Assembly (NCBI RefSeq): GCF_028641065.1
Contig: NC_073377.1
Location: 164,486,001 to 164,550,000 of the forward strand
Origin: Leucoraja erinacea
Lineage: Eukaryota
Reading direction: 5' to 3'
Length of the DNA stretch: 64,000 nucleotides
Below are positions 15,860-18,800 of this stretch, piece after piece. A model generated the notes under the pieces. It was not told where the DNA came from, made no database searches, and was given only the letters and a program-made list of their open reading frames with translations. Each line of letters opens with the position of its first letter. Position 1 is the first letter of the stretch. The position numbers and the translations under genes are program-made.

Positions 15860-18800
15860 ATGTCCCAACGTAAGAAACTCGCGACTAGAGCTGCCCGAGC
15901 TTTAACTCCGCCAGAGGAGTCTATTCCAGCGGGGCAGCAGCCAGCGGCACTACCGCTGGAACAGCGGTTTGAAATTCCTCAGACCGAGCCGGGCCCAGTC
16001 ACGCCAGAGCCTACACGGCGGGCTGGGAAAGCCACCCGTAAGACAAACCGGCCGGTCGATTCCGATTCGTCGGAGGAGGACGTGTCCACCCCGAAGCGGG
16101 GGAGAGACAGCCGCTTAAGCTGCATCATGCAGCTGTTGGAGGGGATGGTTTACCGGGAGCAGCAGCGCTCTCGGTCAGACAGGACAGGCGCCCCCTCCAT
16201 GGTGCTGAGTCCGGCACCCCCCTTTGCGACCTCGGACCAGGACTGGGAGGTCAGCATCGGTGACCAGGAGCAGGCTGGTCTGAATATGGGGCAGGCGGAA
16301 GGTACCGAGAAAGAGCAGGGTGTGCAGGAAGAGCTGCTAGGGGTAGTAACCCGATTCGTTGCTACCCCACGGGTTGGAGCACCACTGCAGCCTAGAATGG
16401 CTGCAAGTATAAATCATCTATCCAACAAGCCACTGCAGGAGAAGGTGCTCGCCCAAGTGCTGGACGAGCACATCGCCCCGGATAACTGTGAGGCCCTGAA
16501 GGTCAAGAGCCTCAACCCTCAGATATGGGGTAACGTGGGTGGACCTATTCGAATTCAGGAGGTCAAACTCCAGCGCGTACTTCGCCTCCTGACGGCGGCG
16601 ATAACAGCATACGCACGGGGAGTCGAGACCACAGAAATGACAGCTCATCAACAGGATGTCTTGGCGCTCATGTGCACGACGCAATACGAGCTGAACAATC
16701 TCAGGAGAGATAACATTAGGCCGGCACTGAATCCTAAATTTGCAGGATTGTGCAAAGCTCCCACTGTAGAGACCGACTCATTTCTTTTTGGGAAAGACTT
16801 AAATAAGCAACTGAAAGAAATGGAGGAGGCTTCAAAAACCTTTAGCCTCATGAGGGCAACACCGCCAGCACCTATACCGAAGCTCTTCATAACACCAAGG
16901 CGGCAGCACACCGCTGCATCCACCAGTCGGCATCATCCATATGCGACTGGTCAAAGCTTGGGGCCGCACTATCCCCAGAAACCTTTTTTTAGGTCAGGGC
17001 CTGCAGCGGACCCCCTGGAAAATGCGCCTCCCCCCAACATCGCCAGCTCGTCGACAGAAAACATCCAAAAAGAGAAAACCTCAACCCCGCCAATAACCAT
17101 GGAGGTAGGTGGATCTGGTTCCTACCCGCATATTGTGAATAAGGGTGAATTACTAACAGGGGGAAGGTTACACTTATTTAAAAAAGCATGGGGGAGGATC
17201 ACAGATGATAAATATATACTTAATAGTATTCAAGGTTATAAAATAGAGTTTATTTCGAATATACCGCCAGTTCAACACATGCCTGAGAGGACATTTGTAC
17301 TCTCCAACAAACAACAACTGGAGGGACAAGCTGAACTGGTAAGGCTTATAAACAAAGGGGTCATAGGAAAAACTATTCATGAGCCCTTGGAATTTGTTTC
17401 CAACATATTTACTAGATGTAAAAAGGATGGTGGATGTCGCATCATCATTGACTTGACATCCTTGAATGTATTTGTTAAGTATATACATTTCAAAATGGAA
17501 ACATTTGCGACTGCTAGACAATTGATTTTCAAAGGATACTATATGGCCAGCATCGATCTCAAAGATGCTTACTATCTAGTACCGATACATAAAGATTATA
17601 GCAGATATCTTAAATTTATCTGGATGGGGGAGCTTTGGCAGTATAAAGCACTGCCTAATGGGCTTACTTCAGCTCCAAGACTATTCACTAAAATATTGAA
17701 GCCAGCCATGGCAATGTTAAGGAAACAAAACCATATAGTCATGGCATATTTGGACGACATCCTCATAGTTGGGAAAACTATGGAATTGGCTGTAGCAGCA
17801 GTATCAGCTACAAAACAGCTCCTAGAGACTCTAGGCTTTGTCTTACATCCAGATAAATCCAAGTTAAATCCATCCACAATTATGGACTACTTGGGGTTCA
17901 CAATTAACTCAGTCCAAATGACGATTACCATGCCAAGGGAAAAAATGATTGCATTAACACAATCATGTAAAAACTTAAAAATAAAGAAAAGGCCAACTAT
18001 TCGACAAGTGGCAGCAGTAATTGGCAAAATGGTAGCAGCATTTCCAGCTATCCAATATGGACCTTTGCACTATCAAAATTTGCAAAGAGCAAAGATAACA
18101 GCATTAAAATGGCACAAAGGTCATTATGATCGGATCATGACTATACCCCCTGAAGCAATAGCAGAGCTACAGTGGTGGATTCAATATATTTGGCACGGTT
18201 ATAGTCCTATTGTTATTACTAATCCTACGTTAGTACTCCAAACCGATGCTAGTGCTCAAGGCTGGGGAGCAACTAACTCCATATCCAGCACAGGTGGTAG
18301 ATGGACTAACTCAGAATCTTCATTACTATCTACACTGGGCATTAACTCTTTGGAAATGTTGGGCGCCTTTTATGGTTTAAAAGCATATGCGTCTGATATG
18401 CGTCACTTGCATGTTAGATTAGAAATAGATAATACAACGGTGGTGGCTTATATTAACCATATGGGCGGCATAAAATCTTTATCATGCGACAAATTGGTTA
18501 ATATGATTTGGCAATGGTGTGTCGAAAGACATATTTGGCTTTCAGCTACCTATCTACCAGGTAAGCTAAACATAGTGGCGGACACCAGGTCACGGAAATT
18601 CAATGATAACATCGAATGGATGTTAAATCCTAAAACATTTGCTAAAATTGTAAAGCAATATGGGAAGCCAGATATAGATTTATTTGCATCAAGACTGAAT
18701 CACCAACTACCAGTCTATGTCGCGTGGGAACCAGATCCGGAGGCAGCAGCGGTAGACGCTTTTACGTTAGATTGGGGAAAGTTTGTGTTTTATGCTTTTC

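Follow-up and report, generated by a model that had tools for sequence, protein, structure and literature searches.

The window, the whole 64,000-nucleotide stretch of DNA analysed here, contains a DIRS1-like retrotransposon of 4.85 kb whose parts are listed in Table 1. In the window copy the Pfam matches to the tyrosine recombinase (YR) downstream of pol, Phage_int_SAM and Phage_integrase, fall in two pieces, and an intact YR ORF is present in sister L172. Inverted-repeat analysis revealed ITRs and an internal complementary region (ICR) complementary to both element ends. The ATT...ATT termini, which have differing flanks and lack a target-site duplication, are found in the window and in most of 12 sisters. 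The window protein carries DLFAS and FPPF motifs, which we take to mark a putative methyltransferase region; this region had no Pfam match in the window protein, and PF05869/PF12237 were matched on many homologues. The gag-like ORF1 also had no Pfam match, an Atlas search linked it weakly to a cluster in which LAP2alpha makes up 21%, and no protease domain was found in the window element with Pfam. The closest named proteins come from little skate, which makes a skate-like host likely.

Table 1. Features of the DIRS1-like element (positions in the window).
Feature	Position	Strand	Basis
Whole DIRS1-like retrotransposon, ATT...ATT termini	15665..20510	+	Inverted repeats; sister ends common, flanks differ
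Left terminus; pairs with left ICR (20172-20208) and right ITR (20401-20445)	15665..15728	+	Inverted-repeat pairs
Leader 5′ splice-site-like motif CAG/GTAAGT	15799..15807	+	Sister-locus comparison
gag-like ORF1, 411 aa in six-T sisters; fused into pol at the T run here	15860..17096	+	Homologous ORF in 34/42 families
Slippery site: T7 + A in window copy, U UUU UUA in family	16984..16991	+	Sequence, family counts
Transframe segment, 38 pol-frame codons overlapping the basic Gag tail (stop 17094-17096)	16991..17104	+	Sequence, sister frames
Predicted splice donor GAG/GTAGGT, phase 0 of pol frame, just past gag stop	17102..17110	+	40/42 families and codon bias
Predicted 1919-nt intron with RT, RNase H, methyltransferase	17105..19023	+	Predicted from donor/acceptor conservation; no joint in RNA reads of a related organism
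pol: RT (Pfam RVT_1, ~17420-17905), RNase H-like and methyltransferase-like regions	17099..19030	+	Pfam, homologues
Predicted splice acceptor CAG, phase 0 of recombinase frame	19021..19023	+	Family comparison
Tyrosine recombinase (YR) ORF, broken by private 1-nt indel near 19344	19024..20000	+	Pfam, sister comparison
Internal complementary region in which left and right ICR overlap (circle junction)	20172..20284	+	Inverted-repeat pairs
Right terminus, ITR plus extension	20401..20510	+	Inverted repeats, sister ends

This organization agrees with DIRS1-like elements as described in the parts covered of Piednoel et al. 2011 (PMC3266345), namely in the gag-like, RT-RNase H-methyltransferase-like and YR ORFs, the ITRs with an ICR, the ATT termini (the commonest terminus type in Table 3 of that paper), the element size and the short pol-YR overlap. 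Set against six sisters, 34 substitutions and two single-base indels are private to the window copy; of these indels, one is an extra T at the gag-pol junction and the other is the indel in the recombinase. The window copy is ageing and cannot be autonomous as assembled.

Two observations concern the surroundings of the element. Upstream of it, window positions 12650-14074 encode, by translation, Ty3/gypsy-like RT, RNase H and integrase fragments spread across several frames. In four RNA runs of a related organism, the flanks at 15664 and 20508 were joined directly in many reads (56, 78, 45 and 16 distinct starts), which suggests that the element sits in a multi-copy repeat of which the empty form is common.

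The gag-pol junction

At the junction of gag and pol, the window copy has seven T residues (16984-16990) followed by AG and, as an earlier sequence-only reading had stated, this run yields one stop-to-stop frame of 1074 aa (15806-19030). That reading also held that one T fewer would give a basic Gag-like tail and leave pol in the -1 frame, which is the arrangement seen in the six-T sisters, where gag runs 34 codons further to a TAA at window 17094-17096. The suspected six-T consensus was borne out as well: among 30 loci fetched out of the 40 best genome matches, 28 had six T, one had five and the window alone had seven, and exact motif counts genome-wide were 275 for six T, 43 for five and 4 for seven. 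None of the other three seven-T copies is from the subfamily of the window: one, full-length, is 91% identical, and two are of a defective lineage. On these counts and the lineage of the sampled copies, seven T as a natural fusion of the family was rejected. In RNA reads of the related organism the T run was mostly one T shorter (6/7, 14/25, 5/8 and 51/83) or two shorter. We conclude that the seventh T is a rare, copy-specific change, either a mutation or an assembly error. Because the recombinase frame is broken too, the window copy is not the working constitutive fusion that had been suggested, and its extra T is ordinary copy-level noise that matters little.

All 20 of the five-T copies sampled (of 43) belong to a chimeric, pol-defective lineage from which the RT is deleted; the four mapped in detail lack pol residues ~49-294, and the RT core is missing. 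A further five-T copy (L024) lies within the full-length family. A founder effect could account for the five-T lineage, in which six-T members also occur. The chimera is an amplified, non-autonomous element of the window's own genome (L146-L165, L173, L177, L179, L180, L182, L183, L185), in which the window family's gag is joined after ~17133 to pol and YR that are decayed and come from another family. No RT core is present in the nine copies mapped, and the five-T members are ~97% identical to each other.

The junction was compared across the best 80 of 495 metagenome loci, retrieved by pol alignment, and 30 loci of the window's genome, with L095, which has no pol start, left out. At a pol identity cut of 75% these gave 42 families, which are 37-75% identical to one another (median 48%) and represent relatives close enough for retrieval by pol alignment. 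Relative to an upstream ORF of at least 250 codons, which allowed 28 families to be scored and left 14 of the 42 without a score, pol lay in the -1 frame in 24, in frame in 4 and in the +1 frame in none. Two of the in-frame cases are single-copy indels (L070, another seven-T copy, and L140), and the other two (L048 and L056) are natural fusions.

The heptamer is kept across diverged families, an outcome that the sequence-only reading had named as support for frameshifting: 37 of 42 have a slippery-type heptamer in the register that a -1 shift requires (28 U UUU UUA, 4 A AAA AAC, 3 U UUU UUG, 1 U UUU UUC and 1 A AAU UUA), and five have none. Near the gag end (last 150 nt), runs of U6 or A6 stand in register in 22 of 24 families versus 1 of 96 internal gag control windows; for U UUU UUA the counts are 17 in register and 0 in the two alternative registers. 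By these window controls the heptamer is far above chance in the gag-end register. In two families a pol-frame stop abuts the heptamer, which indicates that the pol frame opens there. Because the families share ancestry, these counts are not independent events, and the quick tree does not show independent origins for A AAA AAC. The comparison, with six T in the family and the heptamer conserved in register, thus supports the -1 frameshift reading for the family, and we consider it highly probable that the T run at this gag-pol junction is a -1 ribosomal frameshift site.

The HIV-1 gag-pol signal is likewise U UUU UUA with a Gly codon next (PMC4373837, in the part covered), and the DIRS1 junction resembles it in having this heptamer in the gag register, pol in the -1 frame and a Gly codon (GG) directly after 23 of the 37 slip sites. 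Unlike HIV-1, the window family has no detectable stem-loop or protease domain and is not a virus; the likeness of the slip sites is likely convergent rather than homologous. Among animal LTR retrotransposons, pol is in the -1 frame in 28 of 51 surveyed, many with classic heptamers, and A AAA AAC is listed with the most shift-prone sites for mammalian ribosomes (PMC5009743, in the part covered, which does not name DIRS).

The sequence-only reading had also pointed to short GC-rich pairings (ggtc/gacc and caggg/ccctg) after the site. These pairings exist, but no more than chance would give: the fold of 16992-17050 has an energy of -9.1 kcal/mol, which 200 of 200 shuffles equal or better (z +2.6). 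The first arm of the proposed stem lies directly after the heptamer with no spacer. A stimulator built from these pairings was rejected because the segment folds worse than all 200 shuffles, and folding without pseudoknots or long-range pairing found no stimulatory stem-loop in the window family (z +1.3 to +2.6). Among 35 families, stable folds (z < -2) were located downstream in 13 and upstream in 1, and all 13 lie outside the window's clade. A clade that keeps its U6A site with no obvious stimulator would offer a natural test of whether frameshifting can do without structure.

A predicted intron between gag and the recombinase

Donor-like motifs were scored out of 9 against the donor consensus, with a cut-off of at least 7. 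A phase-0 motif passing this cut-off lies at or just past the gag stop at 40 of 42 junctions versus 17 of 252 pol control windows; phase 1 was found in 11 families and phase 2 in none. The Val codon at the donor is GTA or GTG in 41 of 42 cases versus 361 of 769 elsewhere, and the Ser codon there is always AGY; the donor codons are skewed as a nucleotide-level signal would be. In the window the predicted cuts fall between 17104 and 17105 at the donor and between 19023 and 19024 at the acceptor.

The acceptor end was scored in 31 families, 20 of which have an AG, in phase 0 of YR, within codons for F-P-P-F-S in the methyltransferase region. From this AG onward YR has an open frame in 19 of the 20, and in 7 the frame begins exactly there. 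Eight families, the window's included, have F-P-P-F-C; the YR frame has stops there, and a phase-0 CAG at the pol end is found instead. Three families have neither acceptor type. All eight F-P-P-F-C families fall in a single clade (SH-aLRT 99, quick tree), so the acceptor switch counts as one event and a Fisher p of 7e-4 is an overstatement. Donor and acceptor are thus conserved in matching phase for a GT-AG intron, and with 17104 joined to 19024 the 38-codon transframe stretch would continue in frame into YR. Read from the sequence comparison, the two sites predict a Gag-recombinase made by slip plus splice, a prediction whose splicing step we rate as moderately probable.

In the mechanism that we propose, most ribosomes would make Gag and stop at its terminator (17094-17096), and a smaller share would shift by -1 on U UUU UUA and enter the transframe stretch. 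With unspliced RNA, the slipped ribosomes would go on into RT-RNase H-methyltransferase and yield Gag-Pol; with RNA in which 17104 is joined to 19024, they would pass in frame into the tyrosine recombinase and yield Gag-YR. It seems probable that the slip site and the downstream predicted splice explain both the gag-pol junction and the delivery of the recombinase. The wider proposal, to which we give only slightly better than an even chance, is that a large clade of animal DIRS1 elements makes Gag, Gag-Pol and Gag-recombinase from one promoter, one slip site and one alternative intron, and that L048 and L056, having lost the slip site, regain free Gag via a second donor five bases upstream. 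If this is true, one frameshift feeding either enzyme by splicing would set the Gag:RT:recombinase ratios, the recombinase would be tethered to particles as a Gag fusion, and annotations in which the first ATG is taken as the start of Pol or YR would need correction.

Variation at the donor takes two forms. The sister families L048 and L056, where the slip site is missing and gag and pol are in frame, carry tandem donors five bases apart; the phase-0 donor would give Gag-YR, and the phase-1 donor, with a stop 0-1 codons past the acceptor, would give free Gag. In L032, L034, L036, L039, L047 and L112, a phase-1 donor lies four bases downstream and overlaps the phase-0 donor.

RNA, genome and protein models were searched for the spliced form. 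The predicted 17104-19024 joint was absent from the roughly 1-6% read of each of four RNA runs of the related organism, where depth at the predicted sites was ~3-70 and reads came from both strands and from diverged copies. A search of sequencing runs listed no RNA holder, a result that counts neither for nor against the splice. A genomic copy of the spliced form gave 0 exact motif matches in the genome, no spliced N-terminus was seen among stand-alone YR proteins, and the search of viral contigs returned one weak, unrelated match. Two RefSeq models of Diadema antillarum (XP_071483612.1 and XP_071502116.1) run from Gag through A-F-F-R and the transframe stretch to E and then YR residue 1, with no pol; they may be ab initio predictions. 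These are the only two of 17 long YR-containing proteins with the Gag-transframe-YR layout, both from this one species, and the other 15 are not Gag-YR without pol. In a further protein, P0112, pol and YR are fused; it probably stems from a decayed copy and is uninformative.

In a rival reading, with which the missing RNA joint agrees, the frameshift is real for pol and YR is reached by its own ATG or a second frameshift, the donor being only a Val-Ser/Gly peptide motif. The window subfamily is consistent with such a route, having a YR frame that is open for 61-70 codons upstream with Met codons inside; of the seven copies compared (the window and six sisters), only the window copy has the ATG at 19048. 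A second frameshift has moreover been proposed for the YR of Ngaro elements (Poulter and Butler 2015, quoted in the part covered of PMC13003380). That proposal likewise brings programmed frameshifting into the DIRS order, but it concerns the RT/RH-to-YR overlap rather than gag-pol and names no splice. A peptide motif, however, does not fit the nucleotide-level conservation of the donor codons. Furthermore, five other families and two subfamilies of the window's genome have a stop that closes the YR frame 7-10 codons upstream, with a phase-0 CAG after this stop; L032, L034 and L112 have no Met in this stretch; and the acceptor AG doubles as a stop of the YR frame in 7 families. We consider a separate route to YR rather unlikely.

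We found the slip-plus-splice design nowhere in the literature that we searched. The parts covered of PMC3266345 mention no slip site, donor or acceptor in DIRS1 and give no expression mechanism. No proposal of a DIRS gag-pol frameshift or splice was found there or in the parts covered of PMC7192593, PMC9210276, PMC4157794, PMC5633606 and bioRxiv 2021.01.25.428050; a prior proposal may exist elsewhere. Unlike animal LTR elements, in which integrase is part of Pol (PMC5009743, in the part covered), DIRS1 has its recombinase as a third ORF, which would be reached by splicing out pol. The literature searched gives no explanation for the translation of the second and third DIRS ORFs, and exact, testable sites can now be given. 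The conserved slip-plus-splice design, not the extra T, is the part worth testing.

Other possible routes to Pol

The U run and the AG that follows it in the window could instead be a 3′ splice site, to which the leader donor (cut between 15801 and 15802) would splice, removing gag and leaving pol to start from the ATG at 17099. The leader donor is perfect in 29 of 30 loci, pyrimidines and AG are present at the site, and the ATG has the strong context ACCATGG (17096-17102). The window subfamily has also lost the short leader acceptor of older subfamilies, so a gag-skipping splice may occur there as a side route. However, a strong leader donor was found in 2 of 27 families, and AG is missing at 13 of 37 slip sites (4 are A AAA AAC), which excludes a splice acceptor as the general reading; on these two counts gag skipping was rejected as a general route. 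In addition, 15 of 23 families have no Met from the heptamer to the pol start motif, a constant codon register is nothing that a splice acceptor would need, an ATG in the gag frame comes before 17099, and no such joint was seen in the reads sampled from the four RNA runs of the related organism. We judge this explanation of the site unlikely. The leader itself varies: older subfamilies (L112, L116, L121, L129, L134) have a short GT-AG intron-like leader of ~50-60 nt before the gag ATG, and the window subfamily (15799-15862) has kept its donor and lost its acceptor.

Pol might also arise by re-initiation or internal initiation at the same ATG, two bases past the gag stop, with the U run incidental. 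The window reads TAA CC ATG, and a like stop-ATG spacing occurs in L062, L086, L093 and L098, but the lack of Met in 15 of 23 families makes this improbable, and the pol frame is open for 41-79 codons back to the heptamer while stops interrupt the third frame in 14 of 23. In the window family, gag skipping by splicing or re-initiation at 17099 may play a part, but neither can serve most families. Together, the 13 of 37 sites without AG and the 15 of 23 families without Met leave -1 frameshifting well supported by comparison.

We give very little credence to the idea that the site merely encodes a conserved F-L-G Gag motif, as the Gly codon after 23 of 37 sites might suggest, or that RNA polymerase rather than the ribosome slips, as homopolymer runs can in transcription, because the codons at the site are fixed (the slip string encodes 2 of 118 x-F-L dipeptides inside pol), four families encode K-N instead of F-L with a classic heptamer kept, and the run holds one codon register, which polymerase slipping would not need. 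In three related families (L062, L086 and L103), the slip site reads U UUU UUG GGG, which lies outside the classic pattern.
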